Positions 4,965 through 52,105 of a stretch of DNA of 64,000 nt are shown one piece after another. The notes beneath the pieces were generated by a model. That model searched no databases, was not told the origin of the DNA, and worked only from the letters and a program-made list of their open reading frames with translations. A program made the position numbers and the translations under genes. The stretch is taken from the NCBI GenBank assembly GCA_000165345.1, contig CM000433.1, forward strand, positions 544,001-608,000, given 5' to 3'. Each line of letters starts with the position of its first letter. Within the stretch, counting starts at the first letter, position 1.

Positions 4965-5836
4965 ATGACTGATATCCTTGGAGTTCCCCTCTGTTCTTTT
5001 AGAGATGATCTCTGGCTCGGAAGATTTACTTTGACTCCAGAGAATGCTTTGGAATATTTTTATCTGTCCCCATTTCACGACCCAAATAGTCTAAATATTC
5101 AAAGAAAACTTGGGAAGCACACTGAGTAAGTTTCTTGTAAGAATAATACACCATTTTTCTGGCCTGTATTATTCATTACTACGATCTTTATGTATTCTTG
5201 CAAAAAAATTTGAATTCATCCTATTCCATATTTTTAGTGCTTCCGAAGGATTTGAATATAGAATAACTTATATTAACGAAGAAGGTCTTGGAAATGTTCC
5301 GCAACCTCCTGGATCTACTTGGAACACTCCTAACCAATTCGGAATTTTCATAATCCAAAAGTTTTTCATTGAGTTCCAACGTGAAATCCCTCTCAATATC
5401 TACTATATATTATCAGGTACAATTTATGAAGCTCCAACTCTTAGTAATGTCTTCCTTCACAGAACAGCAGAAGCCTTTCTTAGTATGGAAAAAATATTTG
5501 ATACATTGAGTGAAATGTCAAGATTCAGTCTTTATGAAGGATATACCTGGGACAATCTTGAAGTAACCTCAAAAATTAACTCTGATATAGAAAATGCTGA
5601 TTCAAAAAATACCAATAGTGGTGAGGAAGAAAGCTTGGGTACGTTTCTTCTTTTTCTATTTTGCGTTTTTGTTAAACTAAATTACTTTAATTAATTAACT
5701 CAATTAAATAAATTCTTAATCTTTAGTTGAAATAACATATTCATCCAGCAAAAACTCTAAGATAGATAATATTCTCATGTCCACCAAAAAGGAGCTCTTC
5801 GAAAAGATTACAAACTTCGAAAAGTCAAAGAGTTGA
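4965..5836 (+). CDS. MED6: Mediator complex subunit MED6, three exons: join(4965..5125,5238..5638,5727..5836). Intron 1 is 112 nt and intron 2 is 88 nt.
   Basis: Exon 1 starts MTDILGVPLCSFRDDLWLGRFTLTPENALEYFYLSPFHDPNSLNIQRKLGKHT and ends at a GTAAGT donor. The unspliced frame hits TAA immediately after it. Splicing to the TTTTTAG acceptor at 5237 joins it in frame to the track ORF 5110-5694 (...GFEYRITYINEEGLG...FIIQKF...EIPLNIYYILSGTIYEAPTLSNVFLHRTAEAFLSMEKIFD). The spliced protein aligns along its length with MED6 from human and yeast (VLDYFSERSNPFYD; FIIRKQ; IPLADYYIIAGVIYQAPDL; SAFDEA; GYWW). A second GTACGT...CTTTAG intron replaces a hydrophobic read-through tail (GTFLLFLFCVFVKLNYFN) with a K/E-rich tail (VEITYSSSKNSK...FEKSKS). 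That second intron is less certain. Confidence 0.6.
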
Positions 5837-9119: not shown

Positions 9120-9925
9120 TATTCTCCCATATCTCTTATATGCTCATTATATTGCAGCATTAATTGATTTTATACTTATATATTTTTTTTAGTATTCAAA
9201 CATTTATTCACTCTCTTTTTTTAATATTTAATTCGTATTATTATCAATCAATAATATTTTTTATTCAAACTCTACTCTTAAAATTCTATCCTTTACTATT
9301 TATTCCGCTTCCACATGCAAAAATTCTCAATTCCTGTCATTGCATGCAAATTTTATGCAAACCATTTCTTAATACCGGTTTATTATTAACATTTAGGCGC
9401 CAAGACCCAGACACGTCATTATGAAGTTAAATAAAGTTTTTTTTAATATAAAAACTGAAAGGTTAAGTGTTGGGTTCTCCTTGCGGGAACCCGATTCTAA
9501 AATTGGCTTTAAAAACAGAGAAGATTAGCAAACCCCTGCGTAAGGCTGGTTTCATTCGCCGAAAGGTATAACCAATTTTTTTTTTCCTTTATTTTTTTTA
9601 TTACAAAAGATAAACTAGGCTCATATGTTAAGTGATATATTCTTCTATGTATACCGGAATCTATTTTCAGGTTCTGAATTCAATCAATGAACTATTATTT
9701 CTAATCCAAAAAACCATAAAAACTTAGATAAATGCTAGAATTTTATCCTTTCTAGATCATACATGAAATACTAAGCTATGATTCTATAGCAAAGCTCGTT
9801 ATATATCCTTTATAGCTATTAAATTTTAACCTTTTCCTAATTTATATTTGTCTCTGCTAGACGTGACATGAAATATGTCAATTTAACAATAATTAATTGA
9901 TCTGAAACTTCCAACATTTTATAAA

Positions 9926-12900
9926 ATGGAAAATGATACGAAAATATGTGGAGTTCAGCCATTAAGCTCACTAAAGCCTATTAACTCTGTTTTGGCAATT
10001 AAACTTCGAAATATTGATCTTATTTTAGCAGGATTTGGAAATGAGCTGAGAATATACTCCCAAAACTTTGAAACAATCTACGATCAATTAGTTTACCACG
10101 ATTCTCATAATATTTATGGGATAAAATATGGTGAGTTAGATGATTTAGTTGCTATATATGGTCTTAACAAAGTTGTTTGGTGTCGTATACATATTCAGGA
10201 ATCACAACAAGATATCTCCGACTCAAAATGTCAGAAAATTCATTCTATCAAAGTTGGAGAATTGAACGAGTATGATCTTTTCCTTGAATCTTGTAATTAT
10301 CTTAAAGGAAAATGGCTAATTGGAAGTTCTACTGGCAAAATAAGGCTTTGTCAATTTGAACAACAAACCCAAGATTATATCATTCCTAAGATTCAAAATC
10401 TTATCATCCCTCAATCTCCAACTCTATATTGCATGAAATTTCATATACTTACTGATTCTGAAGAAGTCATGATTGTATCAGGATCTGCTTTCTCTACTGT
10501 CAATGTTTCAATATTAACCATTAATAAAGAAAGTATTATTCAGGAACAAATCCTTAAAGCTCATAATGGAGTTGTATATGATCTCAAGATTATAGGAGAT
10601 GGATCTGGTATTCTATCTTCATCTGATGATAGAAAGATTATTCTTTGGATGAAAGAAGAAAATTGTCTAGAACTTTCTAAAAATACTCAAAAGTTCCGAT
10701 TCTATCCTAAATATATACTAATTGGGCATGAGGCTATTATATGGTCCATAGATACTTTATGGGAAAAAGAACTAATAGCATCTATTTCTGAAGATGGAGA
10801 TCTATTTATTTGGAATCTAAAAGAAGTTAAATCAAAATCTTATGTCAATATAAATGGTAATGATATACAATGTATTAATGGTCCTAATTCAAAAGTATCA
10901 AAAGCTCATCAAGGAAGAGGAGGAAGAGTTATTCATTCTATGTCTCAATTATTAGAAAATAATAAAAATTATTGGTCTTTTATTACTGGAGGAGAAGGAG
11001 GAGATTTAAAAGTCTGGAAATTTTTTATAGGATATGAACAAACTAATATTGAAGATGACAAATTTGAGTTAACTTGTGAAGATGATTATTTTGCATTTTC
11101 AGAATCGAAAATCTCTCCAGATATAAATAACCAGCCGGAAACTAATGATTCAAATTCTATTTGGTATCAAGGAGCTCATTTGATAGATCAATCTAAACTT
11201 ATTGGAGTTACCAGACAAGGAATTCTAAGCATTGGGATGAAATGTTCTCAAGGTTCATCACATGAGTGGGAAAGTATTAAAATTCATGATTTAGGAGATT
11301 TGGTGTATTCAATGTCTTCTTTAGATAACGGACATTTAGTTCTTGGATCTTCCAGAGGGAAAATTATACATGGACTAGTAAATTTAATTAAAAATGAAAT
11401 GGAAGTTAAAAATGAGCTTTTCTTGCCAAATTGGACAGAAAATATTACTTTTGTCCAGTATTTTACTATTATAGAGAATGAACTTTATCTTGCATTTTCT
11501 TCATGTTCTAAAGGATTTGTTGGAGCTTCAGTATTCCACAAAATTGATCACAATTCAGAAGATGAATCCACTAATCCATGGATTACGTCAATAGTACCAA
11601 TAAAAGGAACCCCAAAATATGGAGAATTAAAATGTTTGGATATTTTTAAATATAATAATAATACTCAAGGTAAAATAGTATGTGGAACAGTAAGTGGAAA
11701 CATATTTATATTGAATTTCAAAGTTTTAAAAAAAGAGGTTAGTCAAGATAGACTGGGGATTAGCTCGATTTCTGATGGATTAGATACTATTATAGAAATT
11801 TGGTTATCTAATGTATTAAGTGCTTCTCATAAGGGGAATGTCTCAAGTCTTAACTGGATTAATGATTCGAACAATAATTTGGTATTTCTATCAACAGGTC
11901 AAGATGGCAAGATTAATCAGTATTCAGTGAAAGATGAAGCTACATTAGAATGGTCACATAGATGGAATTCCCAGTGTGAATATATAGTTAGATGTTTTAA
12001 GTTGAATAACAGTAATTGGTTAATAATAGGAGCAGTAAAACATGAGTTATTCTTTTACTTAGCGAAGGAAAATGTTACATCTACTCCAATATTATTATTA
12101 ACACATAAATTTGGAGGAATTAAACGTTCATTCCAAATTAATATAAGAAATTATAATGATAAGGATCTTTTGGAAGTGATTTGGTGTCAGAAACCATCAA
12201 TTAGGATTGATCAATTGAATATTAGAAAGATTTTAGAAAGTCAAAACTTTTCAAATAATTTCCTTAATCCATTATTAATGACAAAGTGTTTAAACGTGAA
12301 TCCTCCTTCAAGGCTAATTCATTCTTCAGCTTGGATGAATAATAATATAGTAATTTTTGGAGGGGAGGACCATATTGTAAGATTTTATGATGTATCAAAC
12401 CCCTCAAAAATGTGTTTAATACATTCAATTAGGCTTTTAGATCCTATTAGAAGGCTTAAAGTGGTAAATATAAGAGAAAATGTTGAAATTTTAATGATAA
12501 CAGGTGGGAGACAAATGTTTCATATGTTTGAGATTAGAAAAGAAAGGAGTGAGAGTGATATTGTGATAAAGACAATTTTTTCGAATAATAATGACAAGAA
12601 ACAGAATAATTGTAGATTTATCTCACTAGATTATGTAATTGAACCAATTTCAATGGGTGAAAATTATAAGTTGATTGTAATTGTAGGTTCGAGTAAAGGA
12701 GAAATATTGATATTTTCTTTCCAATTATTAGATTTGGGAGAAAAGTTGGAATTTAATTTGAAGAAAATTGTTACTTTTGGTTTACCTTTTGTACCTTTTT
12801 CAATAAGAGCGGAAAATGATTCAGGAGAGATTTTGGTGCTTGTGGGGCTTTCAAATGGGAGCATTAAGGTACTCAAGAGTAGAAATTTAGGAATATCTAT

Positions 12901-15837: not shown

Positions 15838-15850
15838 TTGGCGGGAAAAT
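15838..15850. promoter_or_regulatory. E2F-like G-box TTGGCGGGAAAAT, 38 nt upstream of the MLH1 start codon.
   Basis: Exact GGCGGGAA core. Its position is typical of a proximal promoter. Mismatch-repair genes are classical E2F targets. Confidence 0.55.
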
Positions 15851-21535: not shown

Positions 21536-21560
21536 CGGCGGGCGCAAATTGGCGGGAACT
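21536..21560. promoter_or_regulatory. Tandem E2F-like sites CGGCGGGCGCAAATTGGCGGGAACTG in the divergent promoter between the 20326-21036(-) gene and ALG5(+).
   Basis: Two GGCGGG cores 11 nt apart, sitting in an otherwise AT-rich spacer. Confidence 0.5.
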
Positions 21561-21971: not shown

Positions 21972-23060
21972 ATGCATTTTAAAGGAGATATATGGAAAGT
22001 TATATTTAAGCACAGAATGCTATTTGTTTCTTTCCTAGTTCTGGGGTTGGCTTTAGTTACATATATATTGATAGGAAGTTATAAGATAAAGTCTGAACCA
22101 GATGATGACAAAGTTATTAGGCAGGTATTTTATAGTCAAAATTATGAAATTAGCAAAGAGGCAGATAAGGAAAGTTGGAATACTATTAGTGGAAATATAT
22201 TGAAGGATTCAGAATTGTATTTATCGATAGTAATTCCAGCTTTTAATGAAGAGGATCGAATTTTAAAGAATTTAAGCTCAATGGTCTATTATATGGAGAG
22301 TAGGAATAGAGAGGATCCAAAGTTTATATATGAAATAATCTTGGTGAATGATGGTGGAAGTGATGATACCTTGAAAATTTGTGAGGATTTTTGGAGACAA
22401 AAAATCCAAAATAAAGAAATAATTGGAGGCAGAATGCGTTTATTATCTAGTCTTGTAAACAAAGGAAAAGGATTTGCTGTCAAAATTGGGGTTATGGCAA
22501 GCCTCGGGAAATATATATTAATGGCAGATGCAGATGGAGCAACTAAAATTGATTGCTTCTCTAAAATGGAGGACATCATTTTAAGTAAAGACGAACAACA
22601 ACAGATTATTTTTGGGTCTAGAAATATAAATGCTTTATCGGAAGACAACGTTTCTAATATTGAGAGAGCTTGGTATCGTCAGATTTTGAATACAGCTTTC
22701 CATAAGATTATGAAAGTTATTATCAATACAAATTTAAATGATACTCAATGTGGGTTTAAGCTCTTCTCAAGGAGATTAGCCAGAGTAATCTTCCCTTCCT
22801 TGCATATTAAAAGATGGGCTTTTGATATTGAAATTGTAATCATTGCCCAAATTCTTAATCTTGAGATTCAACCAGTCAGTGTTGATTGGAAAGAAGTCCA
22901 AGGTTCGAAGTTGTCCGTATTTTCGGACTCCATTAAAATGCTCTTGGATATCCTAATCCTTAAATCATTTTATATTCTTCACATATGGAAAGTCAAAGAT
23001 CATAGTCTATTGGGTAGGCCCTGCGAAAAACCAGTACCTACTTATAGGAAAACCAGCTAA
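21972..23060 (+). CDS. ALG5: Dolichyl-phosphate beta-glucosyltransferase (ALG5, GT2 family).
   Basis: Has an N-terminal TM anchor, then LSIVIPAFNEEDRI, ILVNDGGSDDT, GKGFAVKIGVMASLGKYILMADADGATKI and DTQCGFKLFSRRLA. These are the GT2 DxD and Q/RxxRW-like motifs, arranged as in ALG5/DPM1-type enzymes. Confidence 0.85.
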   Translation: MHFKGDIWKVIFKHRMLFVSFLVLGLALVTYILIGSYKIKSEPDDDKVIRQVFYSQNYEISKEADKESWNTISGNILKDSELYLSIVIPAFNEEDRILKNLSSMVYYMESRNREDPKFIYEIILVNDGGSDDTLKICEDFWRQKIQNKEIIGGRMRLLSSLVNKGKGFAVKIGVMASLGKYILMADADGATKIDCFSKMEDIILSKDEQQQIIFGSRNINALSEDNVSNIERAWYRQILNTAFHKIMKVIINTNLNDTQCGFKLFSRRLARVIFPSLHIKRWAFDIEIVIIAQILNLEIQPVSVDWKEVQGSKLSVFSDSIKMLLDILILKSFYILHIWKVKDHSLLGRPCEKPVPTYRKTS

Positions 23061-23273
23061 AACCCATCATTTTCAAGGAAGAAAACTAAATTAGAGACTC
23101 GTCAGCTCCATTACGCAATTTTGGGCCAAGAGAGACGTAGTAGAGAACAAAAATATATAACATCTAAAAATAAGTCCCTAAAGGGATATCAATTGAGAAA
23201 AGTTATGAAATAAAAGTATCAAAGTAATGAGTAGATTTGCGAAAATGGTGATCTGCTCCCACTAAAGATTCTA

Positions 23274-23440
23274 TTAAAATATACTCCTCAGGCCGTGGTT
23301 GTAACAAGGTATAAGATTTACGGCTTTGCCATTCTCTTCAATAAAAGCAAAAATTGCCTCTCTGACTTTGGCACTCATCATCGAAGATTTAGAACCGGGA
23401 GGATCAATCCAAGTGACTCCCTTGTTCTTGATAAAATTCT
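23274..23440 (-). CDS. Unlisted small ORF, possibly a terminal exon: ...ENFIKNKGVTWIDPPGSKSSMMSAKVREAIFAFIEENGKAVNLIPCYNHGLRSIF*. Identity unknown, and the 5' structure is unresolved.
   Basis: The frame is open on the minus strand from a TTTTAG acceptor-like site (complement of ~23441) to TAA (complement of 23274-23276). An in-frame ATG ATG lies at 23381. The peptide is non-repetitive and compositionally protein-like. A cluster of E2F-like sites lies 5' of it at 23598-23689, in what would otherwise be a 3'/3' convergent spacer. Confidence 0.3.
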
Positions 23441-23597
23441 CTAAAATAGCTTACGAGACAAACCATTCCTACCCAGTATATTGTCTCTTTATTATTTTGG
23501 TAATAATAATGAAAAACTCCAACATTTAATATTTGATTCTACTTGAATACTAGTATAGTCAATACAAGACAGCTATTAATAGTGGCAATTCAAACAA

Positions 23598-23689
23598 TTA
23601 GGCGCCCAAAATCGGGCGCCATTATACACAAGCCAAAGCAATATTAGTGGAGCACAAAGCGGTCTGTTCTAACAATTTTTGGCGGGAAC
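23598..23689. promoter_or_regulatory. Cluster of E2F-like sites: TTAGGCGCCCAAAATCGGGCGCC (23598-23620) and TTTTTGGCGGGAAC (23676-23689).
   Basis: Three GGCGCC/GGCGGG cores within 90 nt. They are positioned as a promoter for a minus-strand transcript covering 23274-23590. Confidence 0.45.
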
Positions 23690-24081
23690 TACATGCGAAA
23701 TGAGAATTTCATTTCTGCATGCAATTTTATGCTTTTTGAAAAAGGATTACAGTTTTAGCTAGCAATGACATATTGTCAATTTAAGTATCGTCCTAAATGG
23801 CTGTTATCTATGTTTTTTTAAATATTTTTTCAACTTTTCAATTCTAGGTGTAATTAGTTTTAAAATAGGAGTTGACCTTTGTAAAAAAAGTGAATATTCA
23901 AGCTTAGATTTGACAGAGAGAATTCCTTAAGACTTATGAAAAATCCCGATTTTTTCTTCTAATAATCTACCTTTCTATGTTTCTATCCCTCTACTTCAAT
24001 ATTGCGTGACCGAGACTATTCTTTGTTATTAAAAGAAAAGATGAGGCTATTGGCTGAAAAGAGAGCTGTTTGGCAAATTGG

Positions 24082-25719
24082 TCAACATTTTGAGGAAAGC
24101 TCTTTAATAATAGTAACTAAAGTCTTGACGCCAAAGCCATTACCAAAGGTTCCCATTCCAGAACAACCAGCAATATCAATGTGGGCATATTTCACATTCT
24201 TGTCTACAAACTCGCACAAAAAGGCAGCTGAGGTAGAAATTGGGGCCTTTCCTTCAGAAGTATTATTTAGGTCAGCAATTTCAGATTTGACCATTTCTTG
24301 AAATTCTGGGTCTAAAGGTAATTGCCAGAATTTCTCATAAACAGTTTTGCCGCATGTTTGAATCATCTGGAATAATTCGTCATTATTTCCAAGAACAGAA
24401 GCATATCTGCCCTCAAAAAGCCTATAGTTAGCCCCTGTCAATGTAGCTAAATCTATGACAGTCTCGACTTTGAGGTTGCAAGCATAGACAAGGGCATCAG
24501 CTAGAGTGAGTCTTCCCTCTGCGTCAGTATTACCAACTTCAATGGTTTTTCCATTAGAGGCAGTGATAATACACCCTGGTAAATAAGCATCCCTGGAGAC
24601 CAAATTATCACATATTGCTGAAATAAAATGAACTTCAATATTCTCTGGCTTAATTAGCCCAACTGAGAGAGCTGTGCCAAAAACAGCAGCAGCACCTCCC
24701 ATATCTCCCTTCATAAAATGAATCATTTGATGCTTAATATTGTATCCACCAGTATCCATAGTAATTCCCTTACCTACTAAGGCAATTCTCTTTTTAATCT
24801 CTCCCTTTGGTTTATAAGTAAGGTGGACAAATTGAGCTGGGGACTTGCTACCCTGTGCAACAGCTAGAAAAGCTCCCATCTTAAGTTCTTCACATTCTTT
24901 TGGTTGAAGAATCTTTCCTTCAAGCCCAACAGATTTTGCCATACTAATAACTTCTTTTGCCATATTGACTGGGTCACAATAATTTGGAGGAGCAGATGTA
25001 AGATCTCTTGCGAATAATAAACCCCTAGAAACAGATTGAGCATCCAGAACTCTACTATTACAGTCCTTTATAGTATCTTCTGACCTAAGAACAAAGTGAA
25101 TTCTTTCAATCTTCTTTGTTGGTTTCTTTGGCTCAGAGCCTACAATGTTTCCTTTAAATCTCTTTTCAATTGTGTTATCGATTGGAAACTGAGTACAGAA
25201 ATACATAATATCTGAAGATACCACATTATCAAAACCAAGAACAACTGTAAAACTTTGAATATTCTTATTTTTTTTCTGGAATTCATTCATTTGAGTTATC
25301 ATTTTATTGAAAAATACTGGACTTGTTTTCTTATTCTCACCAAATGATATTAACATCAAATACTTAAACGGGTATTTTGGAGGCAAATTCACATGAATTG
25401 TATTATTTTCATCTTTAAGAGATGATTCTTGATTTGCGGTTTCTATAATATCTTTAAGTATTCCATTTAAAATAGTGTCTAAAGATTCATAAAATGAAGG
25501 TATACTTTGCATAATATCTTTATTTGGAACGCATAATACGAGACAGTCCCCTTTTAAGCTTTCGTCATATTTATCTTTTAGGACTGAAAATTCAAATTTT
25601 AATGATTCATTAAATTCCGACATTGGAATGCATTCTGGATGTATTGGATTTACCATTTTCTCAATTTCTTCAATTCTTCTTGGCTCAAAAATAATCAATT
25701 TTGATGTAACTAAGTCCAA
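24082..25719 (-). CDS. Leucyl aminopeptidase, peptidase family M17.
   Basis: 545 aa. The C-terminal catalytic domain has the M17 signature NTDAEGRL plus VGKGITMDTGGYNIK and metal-ligand context. The N-terminal domain is less conserved. Confidence 0.9.
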   Translation of the reverse strand: MDLVTSKLIIFEPRRIEEIEKMVNPIHPECIPMSEFNESLKFEFSVLKDKYDESLKGDCLVLCVPNKDIMQSIPSFYESLDTILNGILKDIIETANQESSLKDENNTIHVNLPPKYPFKYLMLISFGENKKTSPVFFNKMITQMNEFQKKNKNIQSFTVVLGFDNVVSSDIMYFCTQFPIDNTIEKRFKGNIVGSEPKKPTKKIERIHFVLRSEDTIKDCNSRVLDAQSVSRGLLFARDLTSAPPNYCDPVNMAKEVISMAKSVGLEGKILQPKECEELKMGAFLAVAQGSKSPAQFVHLTYKPKGEIKKRIALVGKGITMDTGGYNIKHQMIHFMKGDMGGAAAVFGTALSVGLIKPENIEVHFISAICDNLVSRDAYLPGCIITASNGKTIEVGNTDAEGRLTLADALVYACNLKVETVIDLATLTGANYRLFEGRYASVLGNNDELFQMIQTCGKTVYEKFWQLPLDPEFQEMVKSEIADLNNTSEGKAPISTSAAFLCEFVDKNVKYAHIDIAGCSGMGTFGNGFGVKTLVTIIKELSSKC

Positions 25720-46248: not shown

Positions 46249-46261
46249 TTTTGGCGGGAAC
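46249..46261. promoter_or_regulatory. E2F-like G-box TTTTGGCGGGAAC upstream of the 46606 gene.
   Basis: Exact GGCGGGAA core, ~345 nt upstream of the ATG. Confidence 0.5.
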
Positions 46262-51600: not shown

Positions 51601-52105
51601 ATACTCCACCTTATAACCTTTACAATTGTATTATATTGGCAAACACTGACTTTACCAATCACACAATTCTGTCCTTTCTATAAAGCCAACCAGATATTAA
51701 CACAACCAAAGTCTTTCTCAAACCAAAATACCTGTGTGCCAAATCCTCTAATCCTTAAAATCTCCAATAATTTATTTCAATTTTATCTTACAATTTTACA
51801 TCATCATCCCTACCTTATTTTATATTTGCCATTTTTGGCGGGAAATGCAAATTTTTGAATTTTATTTATTACATGTACTAAAGGCGGAAAAAATTAAAAT
51901 AAAAAATAAATAATTCCTACTTGCTTTAATTCTTTCATATTCACACGTGCCACCAAATAAAACTTCTGAAATTAAAACTTAACTCAATCTACTTCATATC
52001 CACATCTCCACACCCCAAATATTCCCTGATCACTTCTTCTCTCATTCCTTCACTAATTTTCATCTCACTTTTTTAAGCCCAATGTCAATTTTACAAAATT
52101 AGTCT

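Follow-up and report, generated by a model that had tools for sequence, protein, structure and literature searches.

The 64-kb window analyzed here, a stretch of 64,000 nucleotides (nt) of Cryptosporidium parvum DNA, contains a 1021-bp spacer on which two genes converge with their 3' ends, ALG5 on the plus strand and the gene for an M17 leucine aminopeptidase (LAP) on the minus strand, as a preliminary description of this DNA had proposed. Adding 565,813 to a window coordinate gives the coordinate in the IOWA-ATCC sequence CP044418.1, in which the ALG5 protein is an exact match and the ALG5-LAP spacer is identical. The minus strand of this spacer carries a conserved element (Table 1) that is almost certainly a noncoding, structured RNA gene of the box C/D type and not an open reading frame (ORF). 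Its box C/D motifs, covarying stems, and elements antisense to ribosomal RNA (rRNA) identify the conserved unit as a small nucleolar RNA (snoRNA). It is probably an independent, single-copy gene for a noncanonical box C/D snoRNA of the type represented by SNORD13 (U13), snR45, and the plant snoR105.

To place the element in a comparative context, syntenic ALG5-aminopeptidase spacers were collected from seven other species (chipmunk genotype I, C. ubiquitum, C. canis, C. felis, C. bovis, C. ryanae, and SRR31860986 Cryptosporidium). These were reached through ALG5 orthologues, and C. meleagridis and C. serpentis through aminopeptidase orthologues, which gives ten species with C. parvum. The edges of conservation are abrupt, at (G/A)UCACUUGG (23417) on the 5' side and just past CUGAGGAGU (23283) on the 3' side, and the mature RNA probably extends from ~23416 to ~23283 (~135 nt). 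The core has a mean column identity of 85% and ~30 consecutive invariant positions at its 5' end; for comparison, the neighboring ALG5 protein is only 49% to 53% identical in C. bovis and C. ryanae. The GC content is 0.37 to 0.38 at 23225-23449 versus 0.26 to 0.32 in the flanks. A covariance model (R1) built from the Cryptosporidium alignment has a single match in the window (173 bits) and one in each locus from the nine other species, with C. serpentis at 93.6 bits (E 1e-20). The snoRNA lies directly downstream of the aminopeptidase gene and on the same strand in all ten species, separated from LAP by 665 nt in C. parvum and by 190 nt in C. serpentis. The neighborhood in the gastric species C. 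serpentis (JBHPOL010000004.1, 10001-16571) lacks ALG5 and has the order aminopeptidase, snoRNA, a gene for a 173-aa protein, and MLH1; orthologues from gastric species were absent among the top matches of the ALG5 search.

Box C, box D, and terminal stem I, which sits one G 5' of box C and directly 3' of box D, are the parts of a kink-turn. The species that branch deeper have a box C that differs from RUGAUGA, with AUGAGGA in both C. bovis and C. ryanae and AGGAAGA in C. serpentis. G3-A4 and G6 are kept, and pairing of the altered fifth position with the box D U would still be feasible. The snoRNA loci with a variant box C span 5264-5407 (L011), 5345-5488 (L012), and, in C. serpentis, 11791-11922 (L022). 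The helices change in sequence across the species. In stem I, the U.G pair appears as C-G in C. felis and as U-A in C. serpentis; each of these one-sided changes leaves the pair intact. Stem II shows a double change from G-C to A-U in C. serpentis (UACCA/UGGUA). One G-C pair of stem III is replaced by A-U in C. bovis and by G-U in both C. ryanae and C. serpentis, and C. serpentis has another hairpin in place of the internal one. The UGAAGA motif that follows the internal hairpin could be a degenerate C' box; the alignment has no conserved D' box alongside it. Over eight species, 95.5% of the cells of the proposed structure are paired, compared with 35% to 60% when the partners are slid along the alignment, and five pairs have double changes. 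The corresponding values for ten species are 95.9%, 35% to 65%, and seven pairs, and the covariation score was reached by none of 500 shuffles, although the ten-species alignment was fitted to the covariance model and favors the structure somewhat. Read from the opposite strand, several G.U pairs would turn into A.C, which places the RNA on the minus strand.

Several other structural candidates were rejected. The RNAalifold consensus, in which the 5' CCUCCCGG pairs with the box D region, contains a pair that is broken by a G-to-A change in C. serpentis, a change that keeps stem I. A possible Sm site (AAUUUUUG, 23355-23348) is the loop of the covarying hairpin. Relatedness to the U3 snoRNA, suggested by GACTATACT at ~23560 and the spacing of UGAUGAGU...AGAGAGG, was likewise discarded, as the 5' similarity is not conserved and the Rfam U3 model scores 8.1 bits; the annotated C. 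parvum U3 is at another locus, next to CPATCC_0004520 (PMC9465071). A plus-strand Rfam match to cow-rumen-3 (17.5 bits versus a gathering threshold of 86.7) and a match to mir-9412 are noise.

The second cytidine of the CCG motif in helix 45 of 18S rRNA is N4-acetylated by NAT10/Kre33. Complementarity to this region was assessed against the eukaryotic consensus 18S 3' end AAGUCGUAACAAGGUUUCCGUAGGUGAACCUGCGGAAGGAUCAUU, which was checked on two environmental eukaryote rDNA contigs and on the human helix 45 (h45) primer (PMC9670809). The 5' antisense element forms 14 of 15 possible Watson-Crick pairs with GAACC(UGC)GGAAGGAUCA, the 3' strand of helix 45 plus the 3' end, with one mismatch (C:A) and one 3-nt bulge in the target; in a constrained-pairing test, 1 of 1000 shuffles was as good. 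The internal antisense element is a perfect 10-nt complement of GUAACAAGGU, directly 5' of the helix 45 UUCCG, and extends to 23298 with one mismatch; exact runs of at least 10 occurred in 11 of 5000 shuffles. Both stretches are unpaired in the structure model. Placed on the 18S consensus, the duplexes lie on either side of helix 45, and the ~10 nt left unpaired between them, UUCCGUAGGU, hold the CCG motif. The internal guide ends 9 nt before box D, and the D+5 position falls inside stem III. Given this distance and the placement of the second guide 5' of box C, the D+5 methylation rule is inapplicable. The element is likely a SNORD13/snR45-type RNA directed at 18S helix 45. For C. parvum itself, the model predicts an 18S 3' end with GUCGUAACAAGGUUUCCGUAGGUGAACCUGC(G/A)GAAGGAUCA and the CCG motif.

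Within the 60 nt past box D, all ten species have a segment complementary to the 5' antisense region, with trailers of differing sequence. For C. parvum, pairing of this 3' trailer with the 5' element yields -20.1 kcal/mol, compared with -9.4 +/- 2.7 kcal/mol for shuffled trailers, none of which (0 of 500) was as good; in the other species, 0 to 22 of 500 shuffles were as good. The minimum-energy folds of the extended RNA are closed by this pairing. By analogy with stems IV/V of pre-SNORD13, the trailer is probably a precursor extension, which presumes that it is transcribed. The 11 nt before the 5' antisense element (UCACUUGGAUU, 23407-23417, minus strand) are almost invariant in the ten species. 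Their conservation is unexplained by pairing to the consensus 18S end and may reflect pairing with the start of internal transcribed spacer 1 (ITS1) or protein binding.

Table 1 Features of the ALG5-LAP spacer and its flanking genes in window coordinates. Negative offsets are given relative to the snoRNA.
Feature	Position	Strand	Remarks
ALG5, family-2 glycosyltransferase	21972-23060	+	PF00535
M17 leucine aminopeptidase (LAP)	24082-25719	-	PF00883; stop at 24082
snoRNA core, 138 nt	23280..23417	-	CP044418.1 589093-589230; sharp conservation edges in 8-10 species
5' antisense element UGAUCCUCCCGGUUC (RNA nt 12-26)	23392..23406	-	Upstream of box C; invariant in 10 species; like 18S-A/18S-B
Terminal stem I, CUUC with GGAG	23383..23386 with 23284-23287	-	100% of cells paired, 10 species
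Box C AUGAUGA (AUGAUGAGU; Met-Met-Ser codons of the preliminary description)	23375..23381	-	Direct sequence reading; canonical
Stem II, UGCCA (23373-23369) with UGGCA (23331-23327)	23327..23373	-	Encloses hairpin and UGAAGA
Internal variable hairpin	23361-23343	-	5 of 7 pairs with compensatory changes; loop indels of 2 and 5 nt
C'-like UGAAGA	23340-23335	-	Between hairpin and stem II; conserved in 9 of 10 species
Stem III, GCCGU (23324-23320) with ACGGC (23296-23292)	23292..23324	-	100% of cells paired; loop holds internal antisense element
Internal antisense element ACCUUGUUAC (RNA nt 108-117)	23301..23310	-	Stem III loop; invariant in 10 species; like 18S-C
Box D CUGA	23288..23291	-	Invariant in 10 species; followed by 3' strand of stem I
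3' trailer AUAGAAUC...GGGAG..GAUCACC	23245..23274	-	Complementary to 5' antisense element
TTGTCT at -44	23461-23456	-	At -41 to -45 in 7 of 10 species
AGACA at -69	23486-23482	-	At -69 to -72 in 9 of 10 species
CTGTCT at -155	23572-23567	-	Direct sequence reading
GGCGCC, two copies, at -189 and -203	23606-23601 and 23620-23615	-	
E2F-like TTCCCGCCAAAA at -271	23688-23677	-	
GCATG / GCATGC	23696-23692 / 23722-23717	-	

Motifs upstream of the RNA are consistent with its transcription as a separate gene. The three E2F-like cores that had been reported in the spacer are present (TTTTGGCGGGAAC at 23677-23689, GGCGCC at 23601-23606 and 23615-23620). Six further species have TTCCCGC or TTGCCGC at varying distances upstream of the snoRNA, and TTGGCGG lies at -57 in C. 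serpentis. Across the window, TTSSCGS occurs 36 times versus 7.8 expected and GGCGCC 10 times versus 0.6, and these cores are evidently genuine promoter-type signals of this genome. The earlier suggestion that the element has its own E2F promoter is plausible from these motifs: E2F-like cores do lie upstream of the gene and are partly conserved, but their promoter function is a prediction. Closer to the RNA, the AGACA and TTGTCT motifs are mutually complementary in C. parvum, with no compensatory change, and could be core-promoter elements acting at the DNA level or a processing hairpin. An E2F-like composite, TTGGCGGGAA, occurs at least six times in the window (15838-15847, 21549-21558, 23679-23688, 46251-46260, 51835-51844, and 61233-61242). 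The window also contains a U6 small nuclear RNA (snRNA) gene at 9473-9580 on the plus strand (Rfam RF00026, 62 bits), whose upstream region (9310-9470) has GCATGC at ~-130, GGCGCCAAGACCCAGACAC at -78 to -59, and an A/T-rich TATA-like box at ~-25. More speculatively, the snoRNA and U6 may share an snRNA-type promoter grammar of GGCGCC/E2F-like and AGACA elements.

The preliminary description had read part of the same stretch as the end of a small protein gene. A stop-free frame of 58 codons is indeed present on the minus strand (23450-23277), preceded by TAA at 23453-23451 and ended by TAA at 23276-23274, and it encodes AILENFIKNKGVTWIDPPGSKSSMMSAKVREAIFAFIEENGKAVNLIPCYNHGLRSIF, including the peptide quoted earlier. 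The acceptor-like TTTTAG from which this peptide was said to run is at 23446-23441 on the minus strand. The frame has no start codon ahead of the internal Met-Met at 23381. The ATG put forward as a possible first exon exists (MLEFFIIITKIIKRQYTG*) but lies at 23525 and not at ~23515; it is in the same frame as the peptide, with two stop codons between. Splicing between this ATG and the open frame was rejected: the GT...AG combinations available would excise 32 or 34 nt, and none of them brings the frame back. The preliminary description had likewise found no frame-consistent GT donor. In the adjacent aminopeptidase gene, the mechanical ORF has a TTG start and gives 545 aa, and the public gene call of 524 aa corresponds to a start at 25656; the exact 545-aa product is not on record.

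The snoRNA gene is probably transcribed from its own promoter (AGACA/TTGTCT at -70/-45, with E2F-like motifs and GCATGC upstream), as a 3'-extended precursor that is then trimmed. If the snoRNA functions like SNORD13 and snR45, it would assemble with the core C/D proteins Snu13, Nop56, Nop58, and fibrillarin. In the nucleolus, it would bind 18S rRNA through both guides: the 5' element would take the 3' strand of helix 45, and the internal element would take the nucleotides directly 5' of that helix. Such pairing would open the helix, leave ~10 nt (UUCCGUAGGU) unpaired, and present the second C of the CCG motif to NAT10/Kre33 for conversion to N4-acetylcytidine (ac4C). Acetylation is plausible by analogy, as helix 45 ac4C has been detected at the same cytidine in the apicomplexans Plasmodium falciparum and Toxoplasma gondii (PMC9226516). 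We regard it as moderately probable that the snoRNA actually guides acetylation.

Several observations weigh against this interpretation. Both the predicted pairing and the CCG motif are derived from the eukaryotic consensus and not from Cryptosporidium's own 18S rRNA. The literature searched gave no usable printed 18S 3' end of Cryptosporidium and nothing usable on NAT10 or ac4C in this genus, and the metagenome contigs matched by part of a genus-specific primer belong to other eukaryotes. Loop-tolerant RNAduplex energies discriminate poorly, with the 5' extension matched by 585 of 2000 shuffles and the internal element moderate at 53 of 2000. Because RNAduplex allows large loops and the target is G-rich, these energies were replaced by the exact-run and constrained-pairing tests, which we deemed more appropriate. 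The folding energy of the RNA is not better than that of shuffled sequences (z = +0.48), box C is degenerate in C. serpentis (AGGAAGA), and the invariant 5' strand might have no role other than pairing with the trailer in a mature RNA of greater length. Further, Rfam searches at gathering thresholds and, with a 181-nt query, at E<=10 returned no family, including snoU13, and only box-C-anchored noise, in the form of sub-threshold matches to several C/D families. This silence agrees with the observation that SNORD13 homologues share little beyond their antisense tracts (PMC9226516).

We compared these findings with other explanations of the conserved element. That it is the 54- to 58-aa C-terminal exon of a small protein-coding gene with an unfound upstream exon, as the preliminary description proposed, has next to no probability and is refuted by the comparative sequence data. 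A frame of 58 codons in C. parvum and one of 69 codons in chipmunk genotype I speak for coding, as does a version in C. bovis and C. ryanae that is net in-frame (+6 nt). However, indels that are not multiples of three break and shorten the frame in C. ubiquitum, C. canis, C. felis, and SRR31860986 Cryptosporidium, while the nucleotides are almost identical. The ~138-nt block is nearly invariant by nucleotide alignment yet contains indels of -2, +1, -1, +5, and +5/+1 nt. Its variable columns are spread over the three codon positions as 17/13/17, with neither codon periodicity nor third-position bias, and no upstream start codon for the frame is present in any species compared. The frameshifts, the even spread, and the missing start codon indicate selection on the nucleotide sequence rather than on a protein. 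Searches with the 58-aa peptide agree. With tblastn, the region was matched in every species, with frame jumps in C. ubiquitum, C. canis, and C. felis. Pfam returned no family match, and among 5.8 billion predicted proteins, annotated Cryptosporidium genomes included, there was no shared word triplet and no homologue. None of the seven other Cryptosporidium species has a called gene in the spacer. The frame also lacks consistent splice sites, and its "MMS" codons are box C. The composition that had been described as globular-protein-like thus does not reflect coding, given that the frame is broken across species and has no Pfam match or homologue. The region is conserved in related species, but as DNA: a conserved minus-strand gene does lie in the spacer, and its conservation is at the nucleotide level, across frameshifts, and not that of an ORF.

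Among explanations that accept an RNA, the closest is a SNORD13-like molecule that acts as a folding or processing chaperone on the 18S 3' end, for example by holding helix 45 open late in maturation, without acetylation. The same structural and antisense evidence applies to such a chaperone. Caenorhabditis elegans keeps an essential NAT10 without rRNA acetylation, and SNORD13 or snR45 can be lost without a growth defect, so pairing and acetylation are separable (PMC9226516); in addition, 30 consecutive invariant 5' nt are more than a 15-nt pairing alone would need. We nevertheless consider a chaperone unlikely, given that every experimentally tested member (human, zebrafish, yeast, and Drosophila) is required for helix 45 ac4C and that the modification is present in two other apicomplexans (PMC9226516). 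The box C/D motifs, the 10-nt rRNA complement upstream of box D, and the C'-like UGAAGA conserved in nine species would also suit an ordinary 2'-O-methylation guide acting on the 18S 3' region through fibrillarin. This is very unlikely, however, as the fifth nucleotide upstream of box D is inside stem III, where the D+5 rule (PMC5464676) cannot operate, no internal D' box is conserved, and the second antisense element lies upstream of box C, which is never a methylation-guide site. Finally, the constant position downstream of LAP on the same strand, together with reports of snoRNAs located in untranslated regions (UTRs) in C. parvum (PMC9465071), could point to a structured cis-element in the LAP mRNA 3' UTR or read-through, or to a snoRNA processed from the LAP transcript. 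Against this, the box C/D motifs and rRNA antisense elements mark a trans-acting snoRNA, position-fixed, E2F-like, and GCATGC motifs stand between the LAP stop codon and the RNA, and conservation is at background between LAP and these upstream motifs, which makes an origin within the LAP transcript extremely unlikely.

If the element is the independent SNORD13/snR45-type gene that we favor, its functional assignment appears to be new. Li et al. (2022) reported 79 novel small and intermediate RNAs of C. parvum (the Cp_snc series), among them three new C/D snoRNAs and 43 intergenic RNAs, and noted many conserved intergenic RNAs without an assigned function (PMC9465071); "unspecified RNA" entries are also present in CryptoDB. 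The snoRNA locus may already be among the Cp_snc or "unspecified RNA" entries as an expressed RNA. The text of that paper makes no mention of U13, SNORD13, acetylation, or an 18S target (PMC9465071). A 2022 survey identified no SNORD13 counterparts in algae or unicellular eukaryotes and so left two possibilities, NAT10 acting alone there or guides that evolve too fast for recognition (PMC9226516). In the literature collection searched, no paper after this survey links SNORD13 or snR45 to apicomplexans. There is a slightly better than even chance that this is the first acetylation guide of the SNORD13/snR45 type to be identified in an alveolate and thus the first in a unicellular eukaryote beyond animals, budding yeasts, and land plants/charophytes.

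If so, snoRNA-guided acetylation of helix 45 and a self-masking precursor would date to early eukaryotes and not to separate origins in individual lineages. A SNORD13-like gene in Cryptosporidium would favor fast-evolving, unrecognized guides over NAT10 acting alone. The alignment and covariance model are a seed for searches of other alveolates, and the question of the guide can be tested in a genetically manipulable organism. For annotation, a false small-protein call is removed and a conserved intergenic element is given a proposed function, in a case that illustrates why noncoding RNA annotation by Rfam alone misses RNAs of the SNORD13 type.

The known acetylation guides are variable in sequence and uniform in layout. 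SNORD13/U13, snR45, and the plant U13 orthologues are atypical box C/D RNAs with bipartite complementarity around the helix 45 cytidine, and ac4C1842 in human and zebrafish, like ac4C1773 in yeast, depends on the guide (PMC5464676, PMC9226516). Through the two-part pairing, the target C is looped out (PMC5464676). Across animals, yeast, and plants, homologues have little in common beyond the antisense tracts and cannot be aligned outside them (PMC9226516). In SNORD13, 18S-A and 18S-B are at the 5' end, upstream of box C, 18S-C is internal, and there are three conserved stems; the trailer of a 3'-extended precursor pairs with the 5' antisense elements in stems IV/V (PMC9670809). The Cryptosporidium RNA resembles metazoan SNORD13 in being a box C/D RNA within or near its range of ~105-135 nt, with 5' complementarity to the 3' strand of helix 45 upstream of box C, an internal tract upstream of box D (target GUCGUAACAAGGU), tolerance of mismatches and bulges, three short internal stems, a 3'-extended precursor that would mask the 5' tract, and a possibly independent gene (PMC9226516, PMC9670809). 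Its stems can be matched to those of human SNORD13 by analogy only. In contrast to SNORD13, its invariant 5' leader is longer, with ~11 nt ahead of the antisense tract, its stem III directly encloses the internal guide with just 6 nt left before box D, its host is an alveolate, and there is no detectable sequence or covariance-model similarity outside the antisense tracts.

The parallel with snR45 of Saccharomyces cerevisiae likewise lies in the box C/D frame and the bipartite complementarity around the helix 45 cytidine. snR45 is needed by Kre33 for ac4C1773, with the target looped out as in an H/ACA pocket, and snR4 serves helix 34 (PMC5464676). The Cryptosporidium RNA and snR45 differ in sequence, and binding to Kre33 has been crosslinked in yeast. 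In Arabidopsis, snoR105, snoR108, and snoR146 form a set of several paralogues with a presumed role in acetylation, unlike Cryptosporidium, which has one copy per genome in the sequence searched. These plant RNAs nevertheless have the same two-tract complementarity to the 18S 3' end within a box C/D frame and, as in Cryptosporidium, can be recognized only through their antisense tracts (PMC9226516).

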